Virus record (IMG/VR): IMGVR_UViG_3300042549_005813
Length of the DNA stretch: 64,000 nt
Origin: a virus
Direction: 5' to 3' (one strand)
Part shown: one piece after another, positions 18,084 through 55,308 of the stretch
Numbering within the stretch: the first letter of the stretch is position 1
Layout of the letters: each line of letters begins with the position of its first letter
Made by a program: the position numbers and the translations under genes
The notes under the pieces: model-generated
What the model was told of the DNA's origin: nothing
Database searches by the model: none
Seen by the model: only the letters and a program-made list of their open reading frames with translations

Positions 18084-18560
18084 ATGGACGAATACGGTTA
18101 TAATAAATTCGAAGAATATTTAATTAAAATATTAAAAAATAGGACTGAGGTTCTAGAACCAGAAATTGGTGATAACATTTCTCCTATTTCTGAAATCAAA
18201 GTTGCATTTGATGGTTATGGTGATTTAGAAACTGAAGATGCCAATGGTGACTACGAATACGTAGAACACGGTAATACAAACCTAGAATCATATGCAATCT
18301 ATATTCATAAAGATTCTGCAAAACGTGGTTTTGTTTTTCCTGAACACGATACACATTCTTTCACATTTGGTAATATGGTGCAACACCGTCCAGATGAAGA
18401 AGTTTGTTTGTTTGCATGGCATGAGTTTCTTGAAGAAGAAGATGCTTGGCGTTGGTATGTCATTCCTTTGGAAGACAGGCTGGCAGAAGACAATTCATTG
18501 ACAGCAGAACAAGTTATGGAAATCTTAGAAGTAGTTGTTAACAGATATTTTATTGAATAA
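18084..18560 (+). CDS. acidic hypothetical protein
   Basis: RBS GAGG; ORF packing. Confidence 0.55.
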   Translation: MDEYGYNKFEEYLIKILKNRTEVLEPEIGDNISPISEIKVAFDGYGDLETEDANGDYEYVEHGNTNLESYAIYIHKDSAKRGFVFPEHDTHSFTFGNMVQHRPDEEVCLFAWHEFLEEEDAWRWYVIPLEDRLAEDNSLTAEQVMEILEVVVNRYFIE

Positions 18561-19771
18561 TGTTTTTCATACATAAAACAGTTAGTCTTTGTAATCATTG
18601 TTATAAACATATACCAGGAATTGTATATGAAAATGATAAAGAAATTTTAATGGCCAAAAAATGTCCGCAACATGGTATTATGCATAGTGTTGTAGAAACA
18701 GATGTTGAATTTTATTACGGTATTGAACATTTTCAAGAAATGTATGAGGACCTAAAAGAAAAATTACCAATATCAAATTCATCTGTCAATCAAATTTTAT
18801 TTGAAGCTAGTGATAGGTGTCAATTAGAATGTCCACATTGTTATCATTTACCTGATAATAAAATCACAGATAGAAAAATAGAAGATATCATAAAACAAAT
18901 TGATGGTTTTCCAAAAACTGGTATTCCTATGTTGGCTGGAGCTGAGGCTACATTGAGGCCGGATTTTTTTGATTTGTGTAAACAAATAGACTCTTTGGGT
19001 TTTGAACAATTTGAATTATTATCAAACGGATTGAAATTTAGTAGTGCTGATTGGACGAAAAAGATATTTCAATCTGGACTTAAAAGCGTATGCGTAGGAT
19101 TAAATCACAGTAGTTATCAAGGATTAAAAGTACATAATAAACAACTTCGTGGTTTAAACAACATATTAGAATATGGTGTTGGTTGTGGTTATGTCGGTTA
19201 TACTATAGAGAGTTACGAACATTTACCTGAAATATTAAATGAAATAAGATTATTGGCTAATCCAAAAATAGACCATTTCAGAATTCGTTGTGGTAGTTTT
19301 ATTGGAAGAAGTTCGGATAAGGAACGTTCTTATTTGAGTAAAATGATTAAGTACATCAAAAACATTCTTGGAGATGAAATCTCAATATCTAAATCAGATA
19401 ATAATCCTTATCATATCATGATGAATTGGAAGGGAATTGATTTACGTTTAATACAATGGCCGGATGTTACTAATATAGATATGGAAGAACTTGATGTTGG
19501 ACCTTGGTGTCAGTTCTATCGTGGACCAATTACAAATTTTGTACACCAAGTTATCACAAGAGATGCTTACAAAAATATGGGACTACCTCAATTGGATGTC
19601 GTACCTGAAAAATATACATACAAATATAAACCAATGCAATATTGGAAAGACGAATGGTTTAAGCCAATAAAAATTAAAGAAAGTGATTTGATTAATGATG
19701 TTCAAATGTGGGATTTGAAAAATATTGGTGTTGATTTAAAACCTTCAATAATACCAATAAAGAAAAACTAA
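18560..19771 (+). CDS. radical SAM protein with N-terminal CxxC...CPxHG Zn-binding module
   Basis: SLCNHC...KKCPQHG; CQLECPHC (CxxxCxxC); GAEATL; SNG. Confidence 0.8.
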   Translation: MFFIHKTVSLCNHCYKHIPGIVYENDKEILMAKKCPQHGIMHSVVETDVEFYYGIEHFQEMYEDLKEKLPISNSSVNQILFEASDRCQLECPHCYHLPDNKITDRKIEDIIKQIDGFPKTGIPMLAGAEATLRPDFFDLCKQIDSLGFEQFELLSNGLKFSSADWTKKIFQSGLKSVCVGLNHSSYQGLKVHNKQLRGLNNILEYGVGCGYVGYTIESYEHLPEILNEIRLLANPKIDHFRIRCGSFIGRSSDKERSYLSKMIKYIKNILGDEISISKSDNNPYHIMMNWKGIDLRLIQWPDVTNIDMEELDVGPWCQFYRGPITNFVHQVITRDAYKNMGLPQLDVVPEKYTYKYKPMQYWKDEWFKPIKIKESDLINDVQMWDLKNIGVDLKPSIIPIKKN

Positions 19772-21739: not shown

Positions 21740-22018
21740 ATGACACAGAGATATTTTGTTGTTGCAGGTAACTATGACCAATATTGCCAATGGATAAAAG
21801 AGAGAGGCCTTTCACGTAAAGAGTGGGTCCATGTATACGATTGCAATACTATCAGAGGTATCAGAAACCCTACAGGCAGACTCGTTGGTACTTGGTATGA
21901 AAGAGAGGATGCTATGGATATTCTGGTGGCTCTGAGAGTGGCATCAGATAAGGTCAATGAGAACCTTGAGAATGCCTTAGTAATGTGGATACAATTGAAA
22001 ACTGAAAATGAAACATAG
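21740..22018 (+). CDS. hypothetical protein
   Basis: RBS AGGAG. Confidence 0.55.
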   Translation: MTQRYFVVAGNYDQYCQWIKERGLSRKEWVHVYDCNTIRGIRNPTGRLVGTWYEREDAMDILVALRVASDKVNENLENALVMWIQLKTENET

Positions 22019-22193
22019 TGACGTACAGAGAATTATAGAGAACCTTGAGAATGCTTTGAGAGTGCATCCAGATAAAGGCTATGAGATTGGTTCATTAGAA
22101 GAATCACAGAAATTTGCAGAGGAGCGAAAGCTGGACCTGGAAAAATTCCCGGTATCAAGAGGATCCTCCGAGAAAAAATTTCGAAACCCTTAA
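22008..22193 (+). CDS. hypothetical protein
   Basis: Last ORF before the strand switch. Confidence 0.4.
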   Translation: MKHSDVQRIIENLENALRVHPDKGYEIGSLEESQKFAEERKLDLEKFPVSRGSSEKKFRNP

Positions 22194-22319
22194 CGGGGCC
22201 CCAGAAAATAAAAAATGAGAAAAAAGAGTTTGACCAGGTGGCACTTTTTTAGCTAATCACTTACCTACCGCACCCCCATCCCTCACCGCTACTGCTCGGA
22301 CAGCAGCTCCAGCAGAGCC

Positions 22320-22354
22320 AAAAAAAGAGGCAGCACCATTACAGCACTGCCTCT
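22320..22354 (-). terminator. Rho-independent terminator of minus-strand early unit
   Basis: Reverse strand reads AGAGGCAG...CTGCCTCT followed by a U7 run. Confidence 0.7.
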
Positions 22355-22399
22355 AAACCCCACCATCCAGCCTAGCCTCAAGTGGGGAGAGCGAAAACC

Positions 22400-23047
22400 T
22401 TAAGCAGCCACTGCCAACCGAATAACTTTTGCCATTTTGCGGCCGTGGGCAATATATGCAACCACTGGGACCTCTTTAGAATAGCAAGCACGGCAACCAG
22501 AGCACTTGCCATTTGTAGTTGGTGCCGTGCAAACCTTAACACCAGCAGGCACCGGCATACCTTCTGGCAATATAGTGCTACCATGTACACCAGCAGTATA
22601 TGTGCCATTTATAGCATCACTGCTAGGGCGCACCATCACATTAGGCAGAGCAGCCATTTTGGTGAGCACCTGCTGATACTTAGCGAATTTGTGCATCCGT
22701 GTGGGCAACCAGTGCTTCACGTGGGGGGTCTTAACCATCACAGCATACATTTTGAGCGCTAACTGTATGGAGTACATATCGCCAGAATCAAACCAGCGGA
22801 AGTAGCTTTGCTTTTTGAGAGCAGCAACCATTGTATCCACCCAAGCATCATCCTGCCATGCTTGCTTATTATCGAAGCGCACTTTTTTGGTGCCAGGGAA
22901 ATTATATGTGCCTTGCGTGGCGTAGCAACCAGCACAAGCGGGAACGAGCTCACCATCCGCACCAATAGAACCTTGGCAGGTTTCGAGAGCCTGAAGGGAC
23001 CAGCTGAGGATATTGTCGAGCTTTGAGGTTTTGGATAATTTGTTCAT
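22400..23047 (-). CDS. GP88-family protein (radical-SAM-like Fe-S protein)
   Basis: KLSKTSK...SWSL, TC...ACAGCYA, FRWFDSGD, HWLPTR, C...KCSGCRACY...H. Confidence 0.8.
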   Translation of the reverse strand: MNKLSKTSKLDNILSWSLQALETCQGSIGADGELVPACAGCYATQGTYNFPGTKKVRFDNKQAWQDDAWVDTMVAALKKQSYFRWFDSGDMYSIQLALKMYAVMVKTPHVKHWLPTRMHKFAKYQQVLTKMAALPNVMVRPSSDAINGTYTAGVHGSTILPEGMPVPAGVKVCTAPTTNGKCSGCRACYSKEVPVVAYIAHGRKMAKVIRLAVAA

Positions 23048-23077
23048 TTCGCTTTGCTTTCTTGATTTGATGGAAGG

Positions 23078-23105
23078 AGTATAACACGGCCACCGAAAAT
23101 GGCAA
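23078..23105 (-). promoter_or_regulatory. early promoter
   Basis: Minus strand TTGCCA-16-TATACT upstream of GP88. Confidence 0.7.
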
Positions 23106-23407
23106 CCTAATACTTTTTAACTCAAGCCACCAGCTGGAGTATTAACTCGGCACCTCTAGTGCAAGCACCAGCACAAGCGCTTGCCACCGACAGCACGGCG
23201 GTGTTATAATATGCGCCGACCAAAGAACCAGTCACAAAAATGAATACATTCATACTAACTCCTAAATTGTTAACTTTTGTTTTCAAATACTGTGCCAGTA
23301 ATTTTCCAACTGGCGGCCTCTGGGATCCGATCCCTTTGCCTTACACTCGAGCGCCGGTGTTGGCACCGGCTTTTGGTGTTGCTGCGTTCCTCGCAGCACC
23401 CGAATGG

Positions 23408-23743
23408 TTACGCTGTTGCTTTGCGAGCCATGATGGCAGCAGCAATAGCATTGTCCTCAGCACCGAACACCACGCCTTTGCTTGGGCGCTTGTTGGCTTT
23501 CACTGCCTTAGCGCCTACAGCACCAACTTGCTTAGCAAGCAGCTTCTCAAGGCGAGCTTGTGCCTTAGCGATAGCGGCTTCACGCTTTTCAGCAGCAGCC
23601 TTCAGTTTAGCGTCAGCAGCAAGACCACGCAAAGCCTTTTTGGTTTCAACCTCGAGCTTAATTGACGCCTTGAGCGCCTTCAGGGTCTCACGCTTTTGAG
23701 TGAGAGTTAAACCTTCAACCGAACCACATGCGAATGTAAACAT
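23408..23743 (-). CDS. Lys/Ala-rich basic hypothetical protein
   Basis: Own promoter and RBS (AAAGGA); histone-like composition. Confidence 0.65.
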   Translation of the reverse strand: MFTFACGSVEGLTLTQKRETLKALKASIKLEVETKKALRGLAADAKLKAAAEKREAAIAKAQARLEKLLAKQVGAVGAKAVKANKRPSKGVVFGAEDNAIAAAIMARKATA

Positions 23744-23776
23744 TTTTTTCCTTTGTTTGTTTGTTTGTAAGAGTCA

Positions 23777-23804
23777 ATTATACCAGATTTGGTGAAAATG
23801 GCAA
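23777..23804 (-). promoter_or_regulatory. early promoter
   Basis: Minus strand TTGCCA-16-TATAAT. Confidence 0.7.
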
Positions 23805-23837
23805 CTGTAAACTTTTTTCTTCCAGTTGCCTGTAGTG

Positions 23838-24095
23838 TTATTCTGTGGTCAATTCATCCAACAGGCGGCCGGCCGCTTCACGCTGGTCCTGTATTTCGCA
23901 AAGGATGAATTTAGCACGGTTCATATATTGGCGGGAATCATTGGTTGCACCCATCGCCAGCAATTCCTGAGCGTCCGACAATATGCTCATGCACACCATT
24001 TCCAGACCAACGTGCTTGGCAGTAAAGCTTTTCATATACTGCTCACGGATCGCTGCTGTTGACATACCGTAGCACTGCTTTTCGAATTCGGTCAT
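23838..24095 (-). CDS. hypothetical protein (85 aa; start at MTEFEKQCYG)
   Basis: The promoter at 24126-24154 places the start at ATG 24095 rather than the longer track ORF. Confidence 0.6.
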   Translation of the reverse strand: MTEFEKQCYGMSTAAIREQYMKSFTAKHVGLEMVCMSILSDAQELLAMGATNDSRQYMNRAKFILCEIQDQREAAGRLLDELTTE

Positions 24096-35882: not shown

Positions 35883-37025
35883 ATGAGTTTAAACCGCAAT
35901 CAAACCGCTTTTGTTAAAGCAGCCGAAGAATTGTATGGCACAGGTTCTATTTTGACCCGTGACGGCATTCAACAAGTTATTGAAGAAAATGACCTTTCTT
36001 TTCCACACTGGTTTGTAACCAAGTCTGATTATAGAGTTGGTCGAGGAGAATATAAATTGCCTAACATCGGCACCAAGAAAACAATTGTTAAAGAACCTGA
36101 ACTTGAAATTGCATTGGCTGCACAAGTTTTAGAATTCAAACAACCTAAACTAGTTGATGACTCTGACGTATCAATTCCTACAAAGTATAAAGATTATGTG
36201 CCATTTGGATTTTTTAAAGATTTGCGTAATATCATTAAGTCTGATTTGTTTTATCCTGTGTTCATTACAGGCCTTTCAGGTAATGGTAAAACCCTCATGG
36301 TGGAACAATCTTGCTCGGAGCTCGGGCGGGAGTGCATTAGAGTTAACATTAGTATTGAAACTGATGAATCGGATTTGCTCGGTGGTCCTACTCTTGTTAA
36401 TGGGAACGTTGTTAATCGTGACGGTCCTGTTATTACAGCAATGAAGCGTGGCGCCATTCTGTTGATTGATGAAGTTGACCGTGGTTCTAATAAGTTGATG
36501 TGTTTGCAAGGTATCTTAGAAGGCAAACCATACTACAACAAGAAAAACGGTGAGATGGTATATCCAAAAGATGGGTTCAACGTCATTGCTACTGCAAACA
36601 CTAAAGGTCGTGGTAGTGAAGAAGGTCGTTACCTTTCACAGATTCTAGATGATGCATTCCTAGAACGTTTCCCTATTACAGTTGAACAGGAATATCCTGA
36701 TGTTAAGACTGAAAAGAAAATACTTTCACCATTGATTGCTGACCAGGATTTTGTTGAGAAGTTGACACAATGGGCTGATATTGTTCGACAATCATTTGAC
36801 CAAGGTGCTGTTGATGAAGTTATCTCCACACGCCGTTTGGTCCACATTGCTAAAGCATTTAAAATCTTTGGCGACCGAATGAAAGCTATTGAACTATGCG
36901 TGGCACGGTTCGACACAGACACCAAAATGGCGTTCCTCGACTTGTATTCCAAGGTTGATGCGAAAGTTGATGCTCCCGTAGGAAAAGCCCCTACGGTGGT
37001 AAATACGGATGAAATTCCATTCTGA
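35883..37025 (+). CDS. cobS: CobS/MoxR-family AAA+ ATPase
   Basis: GLSGNGKT, ETDESDLLGG, LLIDEVD, TANTKG, AFLERF, ISTRRL. Confidence 0.88.
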   Translation: MSLNRNQTAFVKAAEELYGTGSILTRDGIQQVIEENDLSFPHWFVTKSDYRVGRGEYKLPNIGTKKTIVKEPELEIALAAQVLEFKQPKLVDDSDVSIPTKYKDYVPFGFFKDLRNIIKSDLFYPVFITGLSGNGKTLMVEQSCSELGRECIRVNISIETDESDLLGGPTLVNGNVVNRDGPVITAMKRGAILLIDEVDRGSNKLMCLQGILEGKPYYNKKNGEMVYPKDGFNVIATANTKGRGSEEGRYLSQILDDAFLERFPITVEQEYPDVKTEKKILSPLIADQDFVEKLTQWADIVRQSFDQGAVDEVISTRRLVHIAKAFKIFGDRMKAIELCVARFDTDTKMAFLDLYSKVDAKVDAPVGKAPTVVNTDEIPF

Positions 37026-45425: not shown

Positions 45426-45563
45426 TGGCGCAGATACCAGCCCTATTTCTACCAAAAAAGAAAATTGAGGAGATACCTGAGGTAAAGAATTCCAGCAAGA
45501 ATCGGAAGAAAAAGAAACCCGATACTACTAAAAAAGTTTCAGCAATATTTCAAAGGGGAATTG

Positions 45564-46328
45564 ATGGTTACCAAAAAAACAACAGCCAGATACGCAGCGG
45601 AACAGTTACAAGATGATGAGAATAAGACAAGGCATCAACCAGCAGTAAACAATTCATTGAGAATTAAACCAGACCATCTAAAGACGTTTGATCCACTAAC
45701 AGAAAATCAAAGATTATTCTTTGAGATGTATAAAGGCGGTGCCTACTTTATGGGACTATTTGGTAGTCCTGGGGTAGGCAAAACTTTTTTGGCACTATAT
45801 AAATCATTAGAAGAAGTATTAGACAAGTCCAATTCATTCAAACAAGTAGTAGTTGTAAGGTCACTTGTGCAATTACGTGACGTTGGTTATTTACCAGGCA
45901 ATCTTGAAGAAAAACAAGAAATCTATGAATTACCTTACAAAGAGATTGCGGCCACATTATTTGGTCGTTCCGATGCATGGGATAGATTAAAGGAACAAAA
46001 TCATGTACGATTTATTTCTACTACTGCCATTCGTGGTATTTCTATTGATGATGCTATTATTATAGTTGATGAAAATCAGAATTTGAATTGGTCAGAAGTA
46101 AATACAATTATCACCCGTGTTGGACATAGGTCCAAAATCATATTTTCAGGTGATTTTAAACAAACTGATTTGATTAAGAGTAACAAAGACCAAACAGCAT
46201 TCCATAGTTTCTTGGAAGTGGCACGTAAGATGCCGTCCTTTCAAGAAATATACTTTACACCAGACGATATTGTTCGTTCCAGTTTAGTTAAACAATGGAT
46301 TGTGGCCTGTGAAGACCTAGGTTACTAA
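45564..46328 (+). CDS. phoH: PhoH-family ATPase
   Basis: PLTENQ, GSPGVGKT, VGYLPG, IRG, VDENQN, TRVG..SKIIFSGDFKQTD, DIVRS. Confidence 0.93.
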   Translation: MVTKKTTARYAAEQLQDDENKTRHQPAVNNSLRIKPDHLKTFDPLTENQRLFFEMYKGGAYFMGLFGSPGVGKTFLALYKSLEEVLDKSNSFKQVVVVRSLVQLRDVGYLPGNLEEKQEIYELPYKEIAATLFGRSDAWDRLKEQNHVRFISTTAIRGISIDDAIIIVDENQNLNWSEVNTIITRVGHRSKIIFSGDFKQTDLIKSNKDQTAFHSFLEVARKMPSFQEIYFTPDDIVRSSLVKQWIVACEDLGY

Positions 46329-46367
46329 GATAAATACTATTCCAAACTAAGATAAATACTATTCCAA
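46324..46367 (+). repeat. perfect 22-bp tandem duplication containing late-promoter-like ATAAATA
   Basis: ACTAAGATAAATACTATTCCAA twice. Confidence 0.85.
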
Positions 46368-46384
46368 TAATAAGAGGAAATAAA

Positions 46385-47836
46385 ATGATTTTTGAAATTG
46401 AAGCCACACGATTTGAAGATGGTGATAAAAGAGTTTTTCACTATGACAATATGGCTAATGTGTTGAAAGATTCTGATGGTAATGTGTTTGAATATCCGGC
46501 AGACCAAATGCCACAACATTCTTTGAAACCTTACAAACCATTTGACAAGAATCGTCCACTAAAAAAATCAAAATTAATCAGCCATTTGAAGATTCAGATG
46601 GGGTTGAGTTGTAACTATTCTTGTGATTATTGTTCACAGAAGTTTGTTGAACGCCAACCAGAAACCTCTAAAAAAGATATTGATGTTTTTATGGAGAAAT
46701 TAGATAATCTTCATTTTGATGAAGATGTTGGTTTAAGAGTTGAATTTTGGGGTGGTGAACCACTTGTTTATTGGAAAACAATGAAGCCATTGGCTGAGGC
46801 CATTGCAGAAAAATTTGACAGTTGGAAAACTAAACCTATTTTTAGTATCATTACAAATGGTTCTATTTTAACTGATGAAATTATTGATTGGTTAATGATG
46901 ATGGATTTTGCTGTGTCAATTTCACATGATGGACCGGGTCAATTTGTACGTGGTCCTGATCCTTTTGATGATCCAGAACAAAAAGAACGTATACTTGGAT
47001 TCTATCGCATGATGACAAAACTAGGTAAAAGTTTCAGTTTCAATGCAATGTTGAATGCTAAGAACCAAAGTAGAAAAGAAATCTATGATTGGTTTGTAAA
47101 TCTCACAGGAGATGAAAATGTTATTATTGGTGAAGGTTCAATGGTTGATGCCTATGATGAAGAAGGTATTTCGTATTCACTAATCACAAAACAAGAACAT
47201 TTTGATTTTAGACAGAAGGCTTTTGGTGAGTTATATGCTTCTGATGGTAAAATTGGTTTCTTGCCTCAGCTGGGTAAAATTGATGATTTAATGGCCTCAA
47301 TTTTGAGTCATAGAGAATCTAAATATTTAGGTCAAAAATGTGGTATGGACGATGAACATACAATTTCAGTTGACCTACGTGGTAATGTGATGACCTGTCA
47401 GAACGTAAGTTCTTTGGAAATCTCAAAGAATGGTGAATCGCACCATGGTGGTACATTGGATAATTATTCAAATGTTGAATTAAAATCTGTCACACATTGG
47501 TCAAATCGTAAAGAGTGTCCAGAATGTCCAGTGTTACATATATGTAAAGGTGCATGTATGTTCTTGGATGAAAAATATTGGGATATCTCATGTGCAAATG
47601 CATATTCAGATAATGTGGCCTTGTTCGCAGCTGCTTTCACTGTGATGACAAATGGTTATATACCAACTTTGATTAAGAGTGATACTTTACCATTAGATAG
47701 ACAAGACATTTTTGGTACGATTTTTGAACATAATGAAGAAAATAAGAAAAAAATCATACCAATCAAGGTAGTTAAAGAGATTATTGGAACTGTTGATGAT
47801 GTTGCGGTATATGGCAAATCTCGTTTGGAAACCTAA
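46385..47836 (+). CDS. radical SAM/SPASM peptide/protein maturase
   Basis: CNYSCDYC, WGGEPL, ITNG, SHDG; SPASM KCG...G.VMTC...CPECPVLHICKGAC...C. Confidence 0.9.
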   Translation: MIFEIEATRFEDGDKRVFHYDNMANVLKDSDGNVFEYPADQMPQHSLKPYKPFDKNRPLKKSKLISHLKIQMGLSCNYSCDYCSQKFVERQPETSKKDIDVFMEKLDNLHFDEDVGLRVEFWGGEPLVYWKTMKPLAEAIAEKFDSWKTKPIFSIITNGSILTDEIIDWLMMMDFAVSISHDGPGQFVRGPDPFDDPEQKERILGFYRMMTKLGKSFSFNAMLNAKNQSRKEIYDWFVNLTGDENVIIGEGSMVDAYDEEGISYSLITKQEHFDFRQKAFGELYASDGKIGFLPQLGKIDDLMASILSHRESKYLGQKCGMDDEHTISVDLRGNVMTCQNVSSLEISKNGESHHGGTLDNYSNVELKSVTHWSNRKECPECPVLHICKGACMFLDEKYWDISCANAYSDNVALFAAAFTVMTNGYIPTLIKSDTLPLDRQDIFGTIFEHNEENKKKIIPIKVVKEIIGTVDDVAVYGKSRLET

Positions 47837-47870
47837 ATAATAATAACAACATTTTAAAGATAGAGAAAAA

Positions 47871-48827
47871 ATGGCAACACCAGATATAAACAGTTCAATT
47901 GCAATTTCTCAAATTAATACTGAGGTTGGTAGAGCTGCAACCACAGCAAGTACGAGCTTAAACTTTTTAAATGGATTTTTGAAACCTGCTGGCACATTGG
48001 TGTTGAATCCCGGTGGTACAGTATCAACACCTAGTCCACAAAGGCAGTCAAATCCACAGAATATGAACGTATATCGTGGTGGTTTAACTCATTACCAAAA
48101 AAATAATGGTGGCAATTGTAATAATGTAAACAATAAAGAACAGAATTGTAGTGTTTCTGGTTCTTCAAGTATTCAATGTAATGCAACAAATAACTGCACT
48201 GCAATTAACTGTGCTAATTGTGATACACAAAAATGGTTACAAAGCGGAAATTGCCAATTGGCAACCACACCAGTATACAACTGCACGAACAACCAAAATT
48301 GTTTCACCTATAATTGTAATTGTTCTAAAATTATTTGTACCAAGTTGTTTGATTTGGGATTGATGAAGAAAAACATTTTTGTGGCTGACCAAGCATTTGG
48401 TGAACAATTAAAGAAAACACATCCGGATATATACAATGGTTATCGTGCATGGGCTGAGATTGTTGTTGATTGGATGGACGGTAAAGGACCTAAGATGATG
48501 CCTTGGATGTCCGATGAAGATTTTAGTGTTGCTGCAAAAAAGTGGTCTATCACATGGGCACATGATATTGCAACACCTTGGGCTGAAGAAATGGCCTATA
48601 TGATGGGTGAAAAAGAAACTGGTAGTTTGACTGGTAAAATGATGTTTGCATTTGGTACACCAATCTGTAAAGTTATTGGTGTGTGGCAACGCTGGTTTGG
48701 ACCAAGTAAGAAAGAACCCGGTTTTATTAAAGGTGCGGGCCTTGTTGTAATTTTTGTTATGTTCAAATTGGTTGCTGAACTTGGACGTTTTATTGAAAAA
48801 TTTATTCCAAAGAAGAAGGTTGCATAA
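47871..48827 (+). CDS. Asn-Cys repeat protein, putative modified substrate/precursor
   Basis: aa 78-156 hold 12 Cys, 10 of them as Asn-Cys; followed by a KIICT-initiated domain, a C-terminal hydrophobic helix and a basic tail. Confidence 0.7.
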   Translation: MATPDINSSIAISQINTEVGRAATTASTSLNFLNGFLKPAGTLVLNPGGTVSTPSPQRQSNPQNMNVYRGGLTHYQKNNGGNCNNVNNKEQNCSVSGSSSIQCNATNNCTAINCANCDTQKWLQSGNCQLATTPVYNCTNNQNCFTYNCNCSKIICTKLFDLGLMKKNIFVADQAFGEQLKKTHPDIYNGYRAWAEIVVDWMDGKGPKMMPWMSDEDFSVAAKKWSITWAHDIATPWAEEMAYMMGEKETGSLTGKMMFAFGTPICKVIGVWQRWFGPSKKEPGFIKGAGLVVIFVMFKLVAELGRFIEKFIPKKKVA

Positions 48828-49120
48828 TGCCAACATATTCCATTAAAAGACCGGTTAAAATTTTAACGGATGATAGTGCAAAATATGTTGATGAACATAT
48901 GACTTTTTTCTTTAATACATTCAGTTCAAATGCGTTTAATGCTTTAAACAAAGAAAAAAAGGAACGTGTTTATAAAGCACTAACTTACCATGAAAACATA
49001 TTAATTAAGTTGTTTGGAAATTCGTTGTTAAAGAGTGATGTTTTTCTCCCAGAATTATTAAGAAATTCAGTAGATGTAATACAAGTTCATGAATATAAAG
49101 AATGGTTGGATAAACAATGA
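48827..49120 (+). CDS. hypothetical protein (paralog of next ORF)
   Basis: NALNKEKKERVY...ILIKLF...EYKEWLDKQ. Confidence 0.55.
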   Translation: MPTYSIKRPVKILTDDSAKYVDEHMTFFFNTFSSNAFNALNKEKKERVYKALTYHENILIKLFGNSLLKSDVFLPELLRNSVDVIQVHEYKEWLDKQ

Positions 49121-49497
49121 AAAAATATTCTTACACATATTTTCCGACCATAAAAACTTATGAAGGTGATAATATATTATTGGATACTAAAGTTATTTCA
49201 GATTTTTTAAAAAAAACTTTTATGGAAAGAATTTTAAATTTAACTGAAGAAGAAAAAAATGAATATTTTACTGTAGCTTATGAGTATGAAGATGTATTGA
49301 CGGAACTTTTTGATTCTCAAGTAGAAAAAGTGGTACAAGCTAATTGGACAATGGATCCATTATACAGAAATCCAATAGAAGAATATGAAAATTATGTATC
49401 ATTACCAAAAGATGAGGATTTAACAGATGAGGAACATGAGTTGAAATTACAAGTATTAAAAGAATTTAAAGAATGGTTTGAAAAACAAAACTATTGA
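49117..49497 (+). CDS. hypothetical protein (paralog of previous ORF)
   Basis: LNLTEEEKNEYF...VLTELF...EFKEWFEKQ. Confidence 0.55.
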   Translation: MKKYSYTYFPTIKTYEGDNILLDTKVISDFLKKTFMERILNLTEEEKNEYFTVAYEYEDVLTELFDSQVEKVVQANWTMDPLYRNPIEEYENYVSLPKDEDLTDEEHELKLQVLKEFKEWFEKQNY

Positions 49498-49506
49498 TTT
49501 TTTATT

Positions 49507-50214
49507 ATGACACAAAATATTATGACAAGAGAAGACAGAGAAAAATACCATTGGTATCAAAATGCACAGAACATGTTTTGGCAAAGTCCAATTTGGGAAG
49601 TACAAACACGTTTTGATGAAGAATTTAATGAAACTCTGTTAGATGAAATTTATGGTATCGGCAAAGATATCGTATTGGGTAAAGACAAAGACCCAAACAA
49701 CAGTATATGGGACTACAGTAGACCCAACTTAGATATACTTAAACAAGAAATTATAGACATTGTAACCAAGAAAATTGTGCAAAATATTCCACAACTCAGA
49801 ATGTTAAATATTCGTGGTTGTGAACACTTCATGGGTTGGGTCAATGTGCGTGAACCAGGAGAACGCTTAGAGGTGCATGGACACACCGAATCTGCTATCG
49901 CAGCAACGTATTACATAAAGGCTAAAGAAGGTTGTGGTGACCTTGTGGCGTTTGATTCTGCACAAGCAATTGATTGGTTAAATAATACTCTAAGTAACAC
50001 ACCAAAATTGCGAGAACGTAGGTTTAAACCAGTTGAAGGTAGATTGATATTTTTTCCATCATATGTTTTGCATGGCGTTGATGAAAATAAATCTGATGAT
50101 TTACGCATTTCATTGTCAACCGACCTAAGAAAAGTTGTAGACAAAAATGCACAGAATACGGTAATTTTAAAATCGTGGGCTGGCCGCATGGCAAAAATTA
50201 GAGAATGGAAATAA
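49507..50214 (+). CDS. 2OG-Fe(II) oxygenase (TIGR02466-like)
   Basis: WVN...HGH...YY...PVEGRLIFFPSYVLHGV..N.S...RISLS. Confidence 0.85.
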   Translation: MTQNIMTREDREKYHWYQNAQNMFWQSPIWEVQTRFDEEFNETLLDEIYGIGKDIVLGKDKDPNNSIWDYSRPNLDILKQEIIDIVTKKIVQNIPQLRMLNIRGCEHFMGWVNVREPGERLEVHGHTESAIAATYYIKAKEGCGDLVAFDSAQAIDWLNNTLSNTPKLRERRFKPVEGRLIFFPSYVLHGVDENKSDDLRISLSTDLRKVVDKNAQNTVILKSWAGRMAKIREWK

Positions 50215-50744
50215 TGTTTACAAAACTGGAAACAAATTTTGAAAAACCATTATATGCAGTTACCGACCCACTAAAAAATTTCAAACATGAAGGTAAAGGT
50301 ATCGACTATAAAAAGATATGGTCACCTGAGGCTGACAAAATATATGGTGTGATACCAAAAAGGTACTGGCAGGATTTTCACTTGACAGTAATGACGATTG
50401 ACTGTATAATCCCACCACATACGGATACGGAAATTATTACTTCAATCAACTTTTACCTACAAACAGAAAGTTGTACAACTACATTCTATAGACCAAAAGT
50501 TGGTAATCCACGAACATTGCAGGTGGATAATCAAACCGATGGGTATATATATTTTGAAGAAGATTTGATTGAAGTTGGTAGTTTTGTTGCTAAAGATTAT
50601 GAGATTTGGTTACTTGATGTAAGTCAAATACATGGCGTTAAAGGTGAATTCAATTTACGTAAAGCCATTACCTTAGGAACTTTTGTTCATAAGTATGAGG
50701 ATGTACTAGAGATGCTAAAGGAAACCAATAATGTCGTTTGTTAA
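50205..50744 (+). CDS. 2OG-Fe(II)/cupin-type oxygenase
   Basis: IPPHTD...SINFY...LLDVSQIHGV...R (HxD...H). Confidence 0.7.
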   Translation: MEIMFTKLETNFEKPLYAVTDPLKNFKHEGKGIDYKKIWSPEADKIYGVIPKRYWQDFHLTVMTIDCIIPPHTDTEIITSINFYLQTESCTTTFYRPKVGNPRTLQVDNQTDGYIYFEEDLIEVGSFVAKDYEIWLLDVSQIHGVKGEFNLRKAITLGTFVHKYEDVLEMLKETNNVVC

Positions 50745-51399
50745 ATTGAAACACACATATGAATATATGCCACACACAATCATACCACAAGGTCGAGCAG
50801 ATTCATTTGCCGGCAAATATGGATTAGGTGTAAGACATAATACAATTTGGACACCAGAACCAGAAAAAGAAGTATTGTATAAGGTTGTACCGGAAAGATA
50901 TTGGAAAGATTTTCAAGTAACCAGAATGTCAATTAATAGTTTATTGTTACCACACGTTGATAATGACTTCATAACAACAATCAATTTTTATTATGACCCA
51001 CAAAATTATAGAACGGTCTTTTTCAGAGCAAAACTAGGAGCAAATTCTTGGAAAACAGAAGAAGATAGACACTATGATGTGTCTGTAAATATGAAAGATG
51101 AAAAAGTTAATGTTGAAGAATTAAAAACTAGAGTTAAAGAGTTTGTGTCTGAAAAACAAAATATGCCAACATGTGAAGAAATAACATATGTTGATGCTGT
51201 ATATACTTTTGATGATGTATATGAAATTGGATCTTTTATTGCTCAACCTAGTGAAGCATATTTGTTAGATGTGAGAATACCACATAATGTTGAACCATTA
51301 GGCGGCGAAGCAAAACTTAGAAAGGCATTTGCACTTAGAACTAAATTGTATGATTATGGCCAAGTGTATGAAATGTTACAAGAAACTGGAAACTTATAA
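50731..51399 (+). CDS. 2OG-Fe(II)/cupin-type oxygenase (paralog of previous)
   Basis: LLPHVD...TINFY...LLDVRIPHNV...R. Confidence 0.7.
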   Translation: MSFVKLKHTYEYMPHTIIPQGRADSFAGKYGLGVRHNTIWTPEPEKEVLYKVVPERYWKDFQVTRMSINSLLLPHVDNDFITTINFYYDPQNYRTVFFRAKLGANSWKTEEDRHYDVSVNMKDEKVNVEELKTRVKEFVSEKQNMPTCEEITYVDAVYTFDDVYEIGSFIAQPSEAYLLDVRIPHNVEPLGGEAKLRKAFALRTKLYDYGQVYEMLQETGNL

Positions 51400-51409
51400 A
51401 GGATAATAA

Positions 51410-52204
51410 ATGTTTTTCGAAAAATTAGACTATACAGTAGATATTGAAAAATTAAAACAAGAAGTGAGAGAAAGTGTTTTCACTTTAGGTGACCAAGTTA
51501 TACAAGGTGAAGAATATGAAACTCCAAAATACAATGGTTTTGGTGGTTGGAGTTTAATGTGTAAAGAAGCTACATGGACTGGCGGTTGGGAAGCTGTTCA
51601 ACTGGAAAAAGGACAAACACTAGAATCCTTTTTACCAACAAATGAACTGGTACTAAAAGCTTACAAATACTTTAATATTTCTCATGGATTAGAACATGAT
51701 AAACCAACTGAAGCTTATGTTGGTGAAATTAAAAAAGTAATGGACGACATTCGTGAAATGGGTTTTTATCCAACCAGAGTTAGGGTTACTTGTTTAAAAG
51801 CACACTCAAAAAGTTTGGTGCATAGAGATGCTGAAGAAACAGAATATATGGCACGTATTCATATTCCATTATTTACGAATAAAAAGTGTGTGCATATTTG
51901 TCAAGGTAAAAACTTACATATGCCAGCAGATGGTGGTGTTTGGATGCTTTGGGTGAATCAATGGCACCAAATTAGAAATGATTCGGATGAGGATAGATAT
52001 CATATCATCATGGATGCTTATGATACAAAAAAAGTAACAAAATTCTTTAATTATGCCGGTGATTTTGAACAATTACAGGATTACGTCAGAGGATTCCGAG
52101 AAAAAATTGATGAGGTTGAATTAACCGATGAAGATATTGATTTTTTTGAGGCAATTAGAGAACGATATGTTACCAAAAAAGTTAGAGATAATGAATTTAT
52201 TTAA
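51410..52204 (+). CDS. aspartyl/asparaginyl beta-hydroxylase family protein
   Basis: HRD...RIHIPL.TN...HMPADG...NQWHQIRN.SDEDRYHIIMD. Confidence 0.8.
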   Translation: MFFEKLDYTVDIEKLKQEVRESVFTLGDQVIQGEEYETPKYNGFGGWSLMCKEATWTGGWEAVQLEKGQTLESFLPTNELVLKAYKYFNISHGLEHDKPTEAYVGEIKKVMDDIREMGFYPTRVRVTCLKAHSKSLVHRDAEETEYMARIHIPLFTNKKCVHICQGKNLHMPADGGVWMLWVNQWHQIRNDSDEDRYHIIMDAYDTKKVTKFFNYAGDFEQLQDYVRGFREKIDEVELTDEDIDFFEAIRERYVTKKVRDNEFI

Positions 52205-52207
52205 ATT

Positions 52208-53722
52208 ATGACAGATACACATGGAATTATTTTCACCGGCATGGAGAGGACTAGAACAATTAGTCGACCAGCTGGTGCAGCAAGATTAAGAACAGTTTTA
52301 GACCAACATGGTTACAACGTTGAAGTTGTTGACTATTTTGGTAATTTCACAGATGAAGAACTTGAAACAATCTGCGCTAGATTTATTGGACCAAAAACTT
52401 TGTTTGTTGGTATTAGTATTACATTCATCTATGCATTTGATAAATTAAATAAAATATTCAAACACGTTAAAGAAAAATATCCACACGTAAAAACGCTGAT
52501 TGGTGGCAATGAAACACCAATTGATGGTGTAGATTTGACTCAAGTTGATAGGGTGTTTTGGGGTTATGCTGAAGAAGCGGTATTACACTATCTAAAATTT
52601 TTAACCAAGAAACGTTTAGATGATTTAAAATGGGTGCCATACAGAGATACACTTTCTATCAATGCAGAAATGGCATATAAGAATGATGATACGGATTTAT
52701 CTATTAAGTGGTTAGAGAGTGATTTAATCAAAAATAATTTTTTGCCTATTGAAATTAGTAGAGGATGTATTTTTAGGTGTAGATTCTGTGCATTCCCTTT
52801 GTTAGGTAAAAAGAAGAATGATTACATTCGTCATGTGGATAATTTGGCAGATGAATTTCGTAGAAATTATGAATTGTTTGGTGTTAACAACTATTGGTTC
52901 AATGATGATACATTTAACGACAACGTGGTCAAATTGGATTATGTTGCTGAGGCAATCGCCAAGAGTGGTGTTAAGATAACTTACACAGCATTTTTACGTG
53001 CAGATTTGATTGAGAGATTTCCTGAAACTATTTCTATGTTGGCTGATACTGGTTTGGTTGCTGCAACATTTGGTTTGGAAACTTTTCATCCAGAAGCGAA
53101 GAAAGCAATTGGAAAAGGCCTAGATAATGAGAGACAGTTTGAAGCAATTCGACAATTAAAAAAATATAAACCAATCTACACATATACGGGTATGATATGT
53201 GGTTTGCCTGGTGAACCTATATCGAGTGTTTACAAAAGTCAAAAGATATTGTTGGAACAAAATTTTGAAGTGTTTGATAATTGGGATTGGTGGCCTTTGT
53301 TAATTAGAAAAGGTTCTGTAAGTCGCCTAAGTGAATTTGAAAAGGAATGTGGAAAGTGGGGTTACACTGAAATGTCACCCGATGAATATACAATTTCAAA
53401 AGAGGATGATGATATGAGATATGGTGGAGATAGTGGTATAATGGCTTGGAAAAGTAAATACTCTAATTACTTTACGGCAAGAATCATTACAGCATTGTTG
53501 AATAATGAAACAGAGGAGCATCGTATTGCTGCTGGTAAATCCATTTATGGAAATGCCAACAAAGGTGTTAGTATTAACCATGATGTATTTGAATTGGTTG
53601 GTATGGGTATTGATATAAAAGATATTATTGACGGAACATTTGATAAAACTTTTTTGAATAAAAAAATTGAAGAAGCGGATCAAACTATCCTTGAATACAA
53701 AAAATTAAAGTTAGGATTATAA
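52208..53722 (+). CDS. cobalamin-binding-type radical SAM protein (class B methyltransferase-like)
   Basis: N-terminal RPAGAARL...GYNVEVVD...IGG domain; EISRGCIFRCRFC; DDTFND; FLRADL; GLETF; GLPGE. Confidence 0.85.
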   Translation: MTDTHGIIFTGMERTRTISRPAGAARLRTVLDQHGYNVEVVDYFGNFTDEELETICARFIGPKTLFVGISITFIYAFDKLNKIFKHVKEKYPHVKTLIGGNETPIDGVDLTQVDRVFWGYAEEAVLHYLKFLTKKRLDDLKWVPYRDTLSINAEMAYKNDDTDLSIKWLESDLIKNNFLPIEISRGCIFRCRFCAFPLLGKKKNDYIRHVDNLADEFRRNYELFGVNNYWFNDDTFNDNVVKLDYVAEAIAKSGVKITYTAFLRADLIERFPETISMLADTGLVAATFGLETFHPEAKKAIGKGLDNERQFEAIRQLKKYKPIYTYTGMICGLPGEPISSVYKSQKILLEQNFEVFDNWDWWPLLIRKGSVSRLSEFEKECGKWGYTEMSPDEYTISKEDDDMRYGGDSGIMAWKSKYSNYFTARIITALLNNETEEHRIAAGKSIYGNANKGVSINHDVFELVGMGIDIKDIIDGTFDKTFLNKKIEEADQTILEYKKLKLGL

Positions 53723-54381
53723 TGTTCATTTATTGCCCACCAAAAGAGATTCCAAAAATTGAATCTCAAACTTTTCCTGACGGGAAAAGATATTATGTCA
53801 CGCCTGATGGTAAAAAGTTACCATCGGTGACCACAGTGGTGGGTGCTCAGAAAAAAGAGGCCATCATGGCATGGCGCCGTAGAGTTGGTGAAGAAGTTGC
53901 AAACAAAATCTCCAAACATGCTACATCCCGTGGTACCAATATGCATACCATGTGTGAATATTATTTGAACAATGAAACAAAACCACCAGGCACTGTTATG
54001 CCTGATGCCAAAGAGATGTTCATATCAATCAAACCACATCTAAACAAAATCAATAACATACACTACCAAGAGGTCGGACTGTGGTCTGCACAACTAGGAT
54101 TAGCAGGTCGTGTAGATTGCATTGGTGAGTATGAAGGTAAGTTATCAGTCATTGATTTTAAAACATCAAAGAAGATTAAAAAGCGTGAAGATATTTTAGA
54201 TTATTTTTGGCAATGTACTGCATATGCATTGATGTATGAAGAATTAGTTGGTACACCTATTGATGATTTGATAATCATTATGGCCGTGGATAACGAACAA
54301 CCAATGATTTTCAAAGAAAAAACACAAGACCATATTGAAGGCCTGGTTAAAGCAATTGATTATTACCATAAAAACAGTTGA
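53722..54381 (+). CDS. PD-(D/E)XK exonuclease (Cas4-like phage exonuclease)
   Basis: PSVTTV, WR.RVG, RGT.MH, AGRVDC, IDFKTS, Q..AYA. Confidence 0.88.
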   Translation: MFIYCPPKEIPKIESQTFPDGKRYYVTPDGKKLPSVTTVVGAQKKEAIMAWRRRVGEEVANKISKHATSRGTNMHTMCEYYLNNETKPPGTVMPDAKEMFISIKPHLNKINNIHYQEVGLWSAQLGLAGRVDCIGEYEGKLSVIDFKTSKKIKKREDILDYFWQCTAYALMYEELVGTPIDDLIIIMAVDNEQPMIFKEKTQDHIEGLVKAIDYYHKNS

Positions 54382-54406
54382 CATGATATTGCGGTTGTGT
54401 TACAAT
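54378..54406 (+). promoter_or_regulatory. sigma70 promoter of tmRNA
   Basis: TTGACA-17-TACAAT. Confidence 0.75.
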
Positions 54407-54412
54407 AATAAA

Positions 54413-54713
54413 TAATGTTATGGTTGTATGAAGCAACTAGAAATGTGTTCTGGACGGGGGTGCGAATCCCCCCAGGTCCACCATAAGCATATTAGTGGTC
54501 TTGAAACCCACAATTCATAGTTAAGTCTATGTGCTAGTATGCTTCTGATGGGCCTGCATAGTTTCGACAGGGCAAATAGTACAGAAGTGGACAGCTCATC
54601 AGAGAAGATGTTAAAACTAAATCAAAGTAAACGCAAACGACTCACAGTTCGCATTGGCAGCCTAAACGCTGACTAGGGTTTCGGTTGGTTTCCTCGTAAC
54701 AGAATAACCAACC
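54413..54713 (+). ncRNA. ssrA: circularly permuted two-piece tmRNA, tag (A)ANDSQFALAA
   Basis: T-arm GGGGG-TGCGAAT-CCCCC plus CAGGTCC-A-CCA (ends 54483) lies upstream of the 5' acceptor strand GGGCCTG (54550); G3:U pair; tag ORF 54633-54665; terminal hairpin 54683-54713. Confidence 0.9.
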
Positions 54714-54726
54714 ACTTAATGGAGGT

Positions 54727-55308
54727 ATGATGCAGTCAATTTGGTGTAGGAATGAAATTAAAATCGCTGATGAATTGATGGAATTGGCACCAAAATTACG
54801 TGATGAATTTTTAGAATATCATAAAGACTTTCACACCACATTTAAAGGCGGTGTATCATATGCTGCATCAAACCCACATGCTGTTTTGGATGAAAAAGAA
54901 AAGAATGATTGGAAGGTTGAAGGACTACGTTATGCATTACCTGAACAAAAGGTTGAACATAATTTCTTTTTACAACCAAGAATACGCAACATATTTCCAA
55001 CCGCATCAACGCTAACACAACAGTATATTGCTCACATTGGTTGTAGTGGTTACAGTGTACTAGAATCAGGTGGTGTTATTAAAAGTCATGTAGACATTGA
55101 GAATCGTTCACGCAACACAGTAAGAATTCATATACCATTAATCATACCAGAAGGTGATGTTGCACTGGAAGTTAATGGTATAAAGCAGGATTGGTCCGAC
55201 TTATTTGCATTTGATAATGCTGAATTGCATAGTGCATATAATAAGACTGATAAAAGGAGACTAATTTATATCATAGATATATCTAAGTCGATTTTGTTTA
55301 ACAACTAG
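54727..55308 (+). CDS. aspartyl/asparaginyl beta-hydroxylase family protein
   Basis: YSVL..GG.IKSHVD...RIHIPL...FDNAELHSAYN.TD.RRLI.IID. Confidence 0.82.
   Translation: MMQSIWCRNEIKIADELMELAPKLRDEFLEYHKDFHTTFKGGVSYAASNPHAVLDEKEKNDWKVEGLRYALPEQKVEHNFFLQPRIRNIFPTASTLTQQYIAHIGCSGYSVLESGGVIKSHVDIENRSRNTVRIHIPLIIPEGDVALEVNGIKQDWSDLFAFDNAELHSAYNKTDKRRLIYIIDISKSILFNN

Follow-up and report, generated by a model that had tools for sequence, protein, structure and literature searches.

A phage radical SAM/SPASM enzyme coupled to Asn-Cys proteins points to a probable modification of tail fiber tips

What might a phage do with a block of tailoring enzymes encoded next to a cysteine-rich protein? The question is raised by a 64,000-nucleotide stretch of DNA (hereafter ‘the window’) from IMG/VR virus record IMGVR_UViG_3300042549_005813, an uncultured, freshwater, T4-like phage. 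The window is part of an 87-kb contig with an estimated completeness of 49%. Nine plus-strand genes (46385-53722), separated by short gaps or joined by overlapping stop and start codons, encode a radical SAM/SPASM enzyme, a 318-amino acid (aa) protein rich in Asn-Cys pairs, two small proteins, three oxygenases, a member of the Asp/Asn beta-hydroxylase (AspH) family, and a B12-binding radical SAM enzyme (Table 1). An initial annotation, made from the sequence, described this contiguous and co-oriented block, which the gene coordinates and the Pfam matches of the listed enzymes bear out. It read the block as a pathway, resembling those for peptides that are made by the ribosome and modified after translation (RiPPs), that crosslinks, hydroxylates, and methylates one phage protein. 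The explanation that we favor, with a probability of about 0.6, is that the SPASM enzyme would modify the tip of a fiber or adhesin, which the oxygenases and the B12 enzyme would then tailor.

The proposed maturase matches the Pfam family Radical_SAM (PF04055; E 8.5e-10, 39.5 bits against a cut-off of 29.5) and phrog_1802 (E 2e-62), and its CxxxCxxC motif (C76/C80/C83) is invariant. A test for the SPASM-type pattern Cx9-15Gx4C ... Cx2Cx5Cx3C ... C identified seven cysteines that are invariant in 43 homologs: C319-x13-G333-x4-C338, C378xxC381x5C387x3C391, and C403. The Pfam SPASM model was absent among the enzyme’s matches at E<=0.1. The N-terminal extension of ~65 residues lacks a family match in Pfam and NCBIfam, and general family scans, none of them aimed at the RiPP recognition element, detected no such domain on the enzyme.

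The adjacent 318-aa protein is without a match in Pfam, PHROG, or NCBIfam. It consists of a variable N-terminal module (residues 1-77), an Asn-Cys core (residues 78-152), and a C-terminal domain (residues 153-318) that starts with an invariant K-I-I-C and that we call ‘KIIC’. Ten of the 11 cysteines in the core directly follow an asparagine (binomial P 1.5e-5; equaled in 0 of 200,000 shuffles), and the core cysteines are mostly invariant or nearly so in 40 homologs. The core is unstructured in the AlphaFold model, with a predicted local distance difference test (pLDDT) score of ~33. We also considered the core as a DNA-level tandem repeat and rejected this, since the DNA is not repetitive.

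When a profile of the enzyme was used as query, 80 loci came from viral and 80 from genomic sequences, the latter mostly prophages, with Limnohabitans, Polynucleobacter, Paraburkholderia, and other Burkholderiales as hosts. We examined 162 loci from phage contigs and Burkholderiales prophages that encode an enzyme homolog (36-98% identity). In 129 of them, a co-oriented open reading frame (ORF) within 4.5 kb carries (X-Cys)3 or a longer run, nearly always of Asn-Cys or Asp-Cys. This pattern is present in 130 of 2569 near ORFs, compared with 24 of 2498 ORFs that are far away or on the opposite strand; within the window it is present in 1 of 220 ORFs, a spurious antisense one. Of the 33 exceptions, most are either cut contigs or come from the window’s close relatives, in which the homologous Asn-Cys protein is present but with (Asn-Cys)2 runs only.

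For the reverse test, IMG/VR DNA was scanned for (Asn-Cys)4, considering proteins of at least 80 aa that end in the run. The enzyme is encoded near 29 of the 30 such proteins that have at least 4.5 kb of downstream sequence, and near 25 of 36 with shorter flanks. By contrast, it is almost never found near (Asn-Cys)4 matches that are internal or non-coding. The initial annotation had proposed the enzyme-substrate pairing and had named, as one observation that would refute it, enzymes of the block occurring in related phages without the Asn-Cys-rich gene; for the SPASM enzyme, near-obligate co-occurrence was found instead. These results support the SPASM enzyme and the Asn-Cys protein being a dedicated pair. 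That the coupling holds in both directions is also the chief evidence for the run being the enzyme’s target.

Set against the short precursor that typifies a RiPP, the paired protein is 318 aa long in the window and 79-620 aa elsewhere. Separately, four loci (L201, L209, L253, and L295) encode 67-82-aa peptides ending ...YDDYSTACNCNCNCNC... beside radical SAM enzymes that are 28-29% identical to the family, and these may represent a side branch of this theme that is closer to RiPPs.

The position of the run hints at the kind of protein that is targeted. In prophages, the run is the very C-terminal end of tail fibers that have T4 gp36-like N-termini, collagen repeats (collagen triple-helix, Pfam E 2e-34), and typical fiber repeats; one such fiber ends in NCNCNCACDCCC. 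The system also occurs in cultured phages, namely Achromobacter phage JWF and Ralstonia phage RSP15. In JWF, the fiber gp028 reads ...NCNCDCNCNCSC and then continues with the first cysteine of a Hint domain, while in two further loci (L102 and L108) a Peptidase_S74 domain begins three residues after the run. Peptidase_S74 is an autocleaving chaperone of trimeric tail spikes and fibers. Since the run either ends the fiber or is followed by one of these self-cleaving domains, in every version it would come last in the mature protein and would be the mature fiber tip. The initial annotation had suggested a virion component such as a tail adhesin, or a released peptide. The fiber architectures and the Hint and Peptidase_S74 contexts support the former, a fiber- or adhesin-type virion protein and not a free peptide.

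RSP15 illustrates the gene order: a fiber (gp048, ending NCQCGN), gp047, gp046, and the enzyme, with the module beside a side tail fiber. By hhalign (99.8%), gp047 belongs to a family with members in 49 of the 64 prophage modules. RSP15 gp046 was considered as an oxygenase since it appears HxD...H-like by eye, and was rejected because it matched neither of the two oxygenase profiles nor the AspH protein. JWF gp029 gave no match.

The window’s 318-aa protein combines this run with exchangeable parts. Its N-terminal module (MTLPxSGxIxxSxINxExG) turned up in 517 clusters when a profile of it was run against 1.84 billion proteins. Nearly all of the 150 matches listed have it at the N-terminus of a ~40-500-aa protein, and only about half of these 150 proteins are Asn-Cys rich. 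Given this wide occurrence and the half without Asn-Cys richness, the module appears to be a generic adaptor end with exchangeable heads. In three other, very large proteins (P0069, of 4382 aa, P0129, and P0184), the core of the module (~23 residues, ISxSxINxExG...) is present in 5-25 tandem copies. In a set of 17 relatives with enzymes of 84-100% identity, the identity is 40% for the N-terminal part, 68% for the Asn-Cys core, and 84.5% for the C-terminal domain, a pattern of variability typical of host-contact proteins.

The KIIC domain is confidently modeled as an all-alpha helical bundle that ends in a hydrophobic helix. It forms the end of 68 longer proteins (P0001-P0068; 563-1829 aa) with Gly-rich, LamG, PA14, or DUF4815 parts; a KIIC protein adjoins the ‘fiber protein’ of Synechococcus phage SynMITS9220M01, and another lies within a run of fiber genes (L028). 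In one of the longer proteins (P0068), the KIIC domain comes after a Hint domain. KIIC has no Pfam family, and fold searches returned only uncharacterized phage proteins in BFVD, and an ESM Atlas feature search likewise gave nothing but hypothetical proteins of phages. The best PDB match, the NEL domain of SspH1 (Z 6.1), was rejected as below chance level for helical bundles. Because KIIC occupies the same position as Hint and Peptidase_S74, directly after the Asn-Cys run, we regard it as the counterpart of these self-cleaving, removable modules – probably an assembly or anchoring module outside the functional tip. Unlike them, KIIC is all-alpha with a hydrophobic terminal helix, and it matches them neither in sequence nor significantly in fold.

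Which other genes of the block belong with the pair? Prophage modules are ordered fiber, Ig-like protein, oxygenase, sometimes an Oxy_3-type oxygenase, radical SAM enzyme, and lysis genes, and in 50 of the 64 prophage loci an Oxy_5-type oxygenase is encoded between the fiber and the radical SAM enzyme. This prophage family (A5) is homologous to the window’s Oxy_5-type protein (hhalign 96.5%, E 9e-10). The recurrence and the homology together support the Oxy_5-type oxygenase as the second conserved partner of the system, in which the initial annotation had already included oxygenases.

The block was said to encode three Fe(II)/2-oxoglutarate (2OG)-type oxygenases, and the count is correct: the Oxy_5-type protein has its Pfam match, while the 179- and 222-aa paralogs, which have none, share invariant H72, D74, H143, and R152 (an HxD...H metal triad and a 2OG-binding Arg). 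The model of the 179-aa protein is a double-stranded beta-helix (pLDDT 93) with modest Foldseek matches, the best being the 2OG protein hydroxylases MINA53, NO66, and YcfD (E ~5e-4 (4.5e-4), TM 0.48). The AspH-family proteins described in the cluster and at 54727 both exceed the PF05118 cut-off, and the 264-aa one also matches the beta-hydroxylase 7v4f in the PDB (E 9e-6). The B12-type radical SAM enzyme is likewise borne out by B12-binding and Radical_SAM matches in Pfam, and reaches the cut-off of none of the named NCBIfam families (PhpK, 101 vs 600). The two small acidic proteins described as paralogs are both encoded, but their likeness is weak (BLASTP E 0.001, 23% identity).

Whether all of these enzymes serve the pair is less certain. 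Some or all of the accessory enzymes could be auxiliary and independent of it, and the beta-helix oxygenases, the AspH proteins, and the B12 enzyme could then have host lipids, ribosomal proteins, nucleotides, or small molecules as substrates. A weak resemblance links the 193-aa AspH protein to the lipid hydroxylases LpxO and OlsC, the fold of the 179-aa oxygenase is closest to ribosomal protein hydroxylases, the best matches of the B12 enzyme are P-methyltransferase and lipid families, and tblastn did not detect the beta-helix, AspH, or B12 genes in prophage loci. The genomic distribution nevertheless makes independence somewhat unlikely. As a synteny check across T4-like relatives, one that the initial annotation had called for, we compared related viral contigs, and the entire cluster is kept in ~24 of them. 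In this T4-like group, the beta-helix paralogs and AspH remain beside the pair on contigs whose SPASM enzyme has diverged to 62% identity. The accessories also recur where the locus is rearranged: L053 retains the full set, B12 enzyme included; in L083, a 30%-identical B12-type enzyme lies upstream of a short Asn-Cys protein; and in the differently arranged L083 and L088, B12-like radical SAM and Oxy_5-like genes flank the pair. Prophage modules, in turn, carry more distant Oxy_5 and Oxy_3 oxygenases.

The accessories differ in how far they extend. Outside L053 and L083, the B12 enzyme was found in the closest relatives, and in some relatives the 193-aa AspH gene directly follows it (B12-AspH-nuclease in L015 and L018-L021). 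The small proteins are found mainly in the closest relatives as well, with L053 having a 27%-identical homolog of the 126-aa protein after its Asn-Cys gene. When the B12 enzyme and AspH were each used as a single-protein query, only close relatives were returned, and the 179/222-aa family proved too variable for its profile to be used in scanning contigs. Because they are limited mainly to close relatives, the B12 enzyme and the small proteins appear to be lineage-specific accessories and not part of the core. That one and the same protein may be both hydroxylated and methylated is suggested by synteny.

Several observations weigh against a modified fiber tip. The cluster, flanked by phoH and a nuclease gene, is located among replication and auxiliary genes and outside the structural block, and the 318-aa protein has a membrane-type helix at its end, an unusual feature in a virion fiber. 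The B12 and small-protein genes are missing from most homologous loci. Against all curated maturase families, the scores of the SPASM enzyme lie far under the cut-off, PapB being the best; the enzyme’s best solved relative by profile is cyclopropylglycine synthase (8vpo); and Asn and Cys are adjacent here, compared with the NxxC spacing of NxxcA.

The last three of these observations bear on the bond that would be formed. The NCBIfam scores and cut-offs are 79 vs 340 for PapB (NF047865), 70 vs 500 for CcpM, 64 vs 453 for QhpD (TIGR03906, E 9e-18), and 51 vs 425 for SCIFF. After 8vpo, the nearest solved structures by profile are CteB and anSME; by sequence, the best solved relatives are RiPP-type radical SAM-SPASM enzymes and anSME. 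Since all maturase scores are below cut-off and 8vpo is the best solved relative, the type of bond is not readable from the sequence. Complex prediction for the enzyme with substrate residues 1-160 gave scores of 0.00, 0.32, and 0.00, which decide neither way.

It is conceivable that the enzyme acts on the run to form a product other than a thioether, such as formylglycine (as for anSME), an epimerized residue, a carbon-carbon link, or a loaded metal or iron-sulfur center. In one variant, a ladder of Cys and Asn would bind metal within a trimeric needle, similar to the His-x-His motifs that bind metal in the T4 long tail fiber tip. The cyclopropyl synthase match is in keeping with such products, as is the fact that, of the solved relatives, anSME alone can be aligned along the full enzyme, including the SPASM part; a cysteine at every second residue would suit one face of a beta-strand. 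We consider these products unlikely, however, as the run lacks a sulfatase-type C/SxPxR motif and most of the curated families matched (PapB, CcpM, QhpD, SCIFF, and CefB) are Cys cross-linkers. These matches to Cys cross-linking SPASM enzymes, together with precedents, make a thioether our leading guess. NxxcB forms Cys-Asn beta-thioethers, linking Cys to the Asn beta-carbon in NxxcA (PMC9389541), and CrpC and QhpD put thioethers on proteins (PMC13692751).

That the 318-aa protein instead works outside the virion – as a membrane-anchored or released modified product, for example an effector of the RiPP type, a factor for superinfection or host manipulation, or the precursor of a secreted peptide – would accommodate its C-terminal hydrophobic helix followed by basic residues, the location of the cluster among early and auxiliary genes, and the existence of RiPP-like short precursors (79-139 aa) and of 70-82-aa peptides beside distant radical SAM enzymes, but is distinctly unlikely given that the same N-terminal module, core, and KIIC occur on proteins within fiber gene runs, that Peptidase_S74, Hint, and collagen contexts mark trimeric fibers, and that Pfam and NCBIfam identified no transporter or leader protease gene in the cluster.

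A modified fiber tip remains the preferred explanation. The 318-aa protein would be a small virion protein of the fiber or adhesin type, a place in the particle that we infer from its relatives. In the cytoplasm of the host, the neighboring radical SAM/SPASM enzyme would modify its Asn-Cys core, the likeliest reaction being the formation of carbon-sulfur (thioether) cross-links from the Cys thiols. Such thioethers could serve as redox-insensitive, irreversible substitutes for disulfides that lock an otherwise unstructured, Cys-rich tip. The Oxy_5-type, beta-helix, and AspH-type oxygenases would then tailor the core by hydroxylation, and in the window’s lineage the B12-binding radical SAM enzyme may tailor it as well, possibly by methylation. 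More broadly, and at slightly less than even odds, many phages of freshwater and soil Proteobacteria may form the receptor-contacting tip of a fiber from an Asn-Cys ladder that is cross-linked in the cytoplasm by a dedicated radical SAM enzyme and then decorated by swappable oxygenases, methylases, and other tailoring enzymes. On this broader view, peptide chemistry of the natural-product type would belong regularly to virion assembly, as an evolvable part of it, and would help to determine host range and particle stability.

Table 1. Positions of the cluster, its flanks, and other features of the window.
Feature	Length	Position	Strand	Basis or remark
Second, unrelated radical SAM enzyme		18560-19771	+	N-terminal HMPTM-type zinc ribbon (Pfam PF23545, E 1.7e-12)
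G+C-rich island		22001-24000		G+C 0.48 vs ~0.36; reversed GC skew
CobS-like AAA ATPase		35883-37025	+	phrog_249 ‘porphyrin biosynthesis’, E 3e-107
phoH		45561-46328		Left flank of cluster
22-bp tandem repeat	2.3 copies, 90% match	46323-46375	+	Between phoH and the radical SAM gene
Radical SAM/SPASM enzyme, proposed maturase of the Asn-Cys tip	483 aa	46385-47836	+	Pfam, PHROG, Cys pattern
Three-part fiber-type protein	318 aa	47871-48827	+
Asn-Cys core, proposed modification site	residues 78-152	48102-48326	+	Predicted
KIIC domain	residues 153-318	48327-48824
Small acidic protein	97 aa	48827-49120	+	No family (Pfam, PHROG)
Small acidic protein	126 aa	49117-49497	+	Weak paralog of the 97-aa protein
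2OG-Fe(II) oxygenase, Oxy_5 type	235 aa	49507-50214	+	PF13759, 63.7 bits vs cut-off 27
2OG/Fe(II) oxygenase-fold protein	179 aa	50205-50744	+	Invariant residues, model
Oxygenase paralog	222 aa	50731-51399	+	Paralog of the 179-aa protein, 32-36% identity
Asp/Asn beta-hydroxylase-family protein	264 aa	51410-52204	+	PF05118, 36.4 bits vs 22.6
B12-binding (class B type) radical SAM enzyme	504 aa	52208-53722	+	PF02310, 34.6 bits vs 32.1; PF04055, 69.7 bits
PD-(D/E)XK nuclease		53722-54381		Right flank of cluster
Two-piece tmRNA		54364-54738	+	Rfam RF01850, 123 bits; betaproteobacterial type
Near-consensus sigma-70 promoter		54378-54406
Second Asp/Asn hydroxylase-family protein	193 aa	54727-55308	+	PF05118, 54.3 bits vs 22.6
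Signal-peptide protein	180 aa	55318-55860	+	No Pfam match

Upstream of the cluster are genes for a primase, ribonucleotide reductase, a peptidase, rIIA, the CobS-like ATPase, and phoH; the nuclease, the transfer-messenger RNA (tmRNA), and baseplate-side genes follow it. An intrinsic terminator search found no terminator-like site inside the cluster, and a blastn comparison of the cluster with GenBank phages gave no match.

The initial annotation also placed late-promoter-like motifs before the radical SAM gene and the substrate gene. Taking a T4-type late promoter to be a TATAAATA box 10-80 nt 5' of a start codon, we found two occurrences of GATAAATA upstream of the radical SAM gene, while the substrate gene is preceded by a single CTAAATA. 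The evidence is weak: GATAAATA, which lies inside each copy of the 22-bp tandem repeat, matches the T4 late-promoter box at 7 of 8 bases, the exact TATAAATA has only three occurrences in the 64 kb, and ATAAATAC is no more frequent in the window than in shuffled sequence. Nothing beyond the 7/8 match speaks for the late-promoter reading; the tandem repeat is possibly a regulatory site.

The tmRNA has the tag ANDSQFALAA, and its 3' end overlaps the start of the 193-aa AspH gene. Its betaproteobacterial type points to a betaproteobacterial host, which fits the Burkholderiales prophages that bear the same radical SAM family. The 180-aa protein, which adjoins the AspH gene in relatives too, has a signal peptide and a C-terminal ...YTRSF and resembles a small outer-membrane beta-barrel. 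The second radical SAM gene is sited in a replication and nucleotide-metabolism region. With a CobS-like ATPase and a B12-binding radical SAM enzyme encoded in one phage, a link to cobalamin supply is possible.

Studies of RiPP-type chemistry have concerned the secreted peptides that it yields, and on large proteins it is not known outside a few cellular cases (QhpC and CrpA). The initial annotation knew of no characterized phage system of this kind; our literature searches agree, having found no published description of the system or of RiPP-type chemistry on a virus particle. If phage fiber tips are indeed cross-linked and hydroxylated by enzymes, such modifications would have to enter models of how receptors are bound and how host range evolves. 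It could also explain how a Cys-rich tip folds in a reducing cytoplasm, and the tag and enzyme would make a compact pair for protein stapling.

The CXXX-repeat systems (NCBIfam TIGR04114/TIGR04115) resemble the window in combining a Cys-repeat tail with a radical SAM maturase. Cysteine is every fourth residue there, in contrast to the Asn-Cys pairs here, and the enzyme family differs; TIGR04115 is not among the best 25 of the enzyme’s 45 NCBIfam matches. NxxcB/NxxcA and the ranthipeptide maturases PapB and CteB, all thioether-forming, share with the window a radical SAM enzyme with the full SPASM pattern and an adjacent gene for a Cys-rich substrate, and in NxxcA, as in the window’s core, Asn partners Cys. 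Their substrates are short leader-core peptides from bacteriocin-type clusters, whereas the window’s is a 318-aa protein (or, elsewhere, a full fiber) that would belong to a virus particle gene set. The best NCBIfam and PDB sequence matches of the window’s enzyme are to these families, at scores far below their cut-offs. CrpC/CrpA of Methanococcus voltae and QhpD/QhpC offer another parallel, as in these systems a SPASM enzyme modifies a Cys-rich protein encoded next to it (PMC13692751). The window’s enzyme has no homology to CrpC or QhpD above cut-off, and the proteins that they modify are an archaeal cellular protein and an enzyme subunit, whereas the window couples its SPASM enzyme to a predicted phage fiber tip, several oxygenases, and a B12 enzyme.

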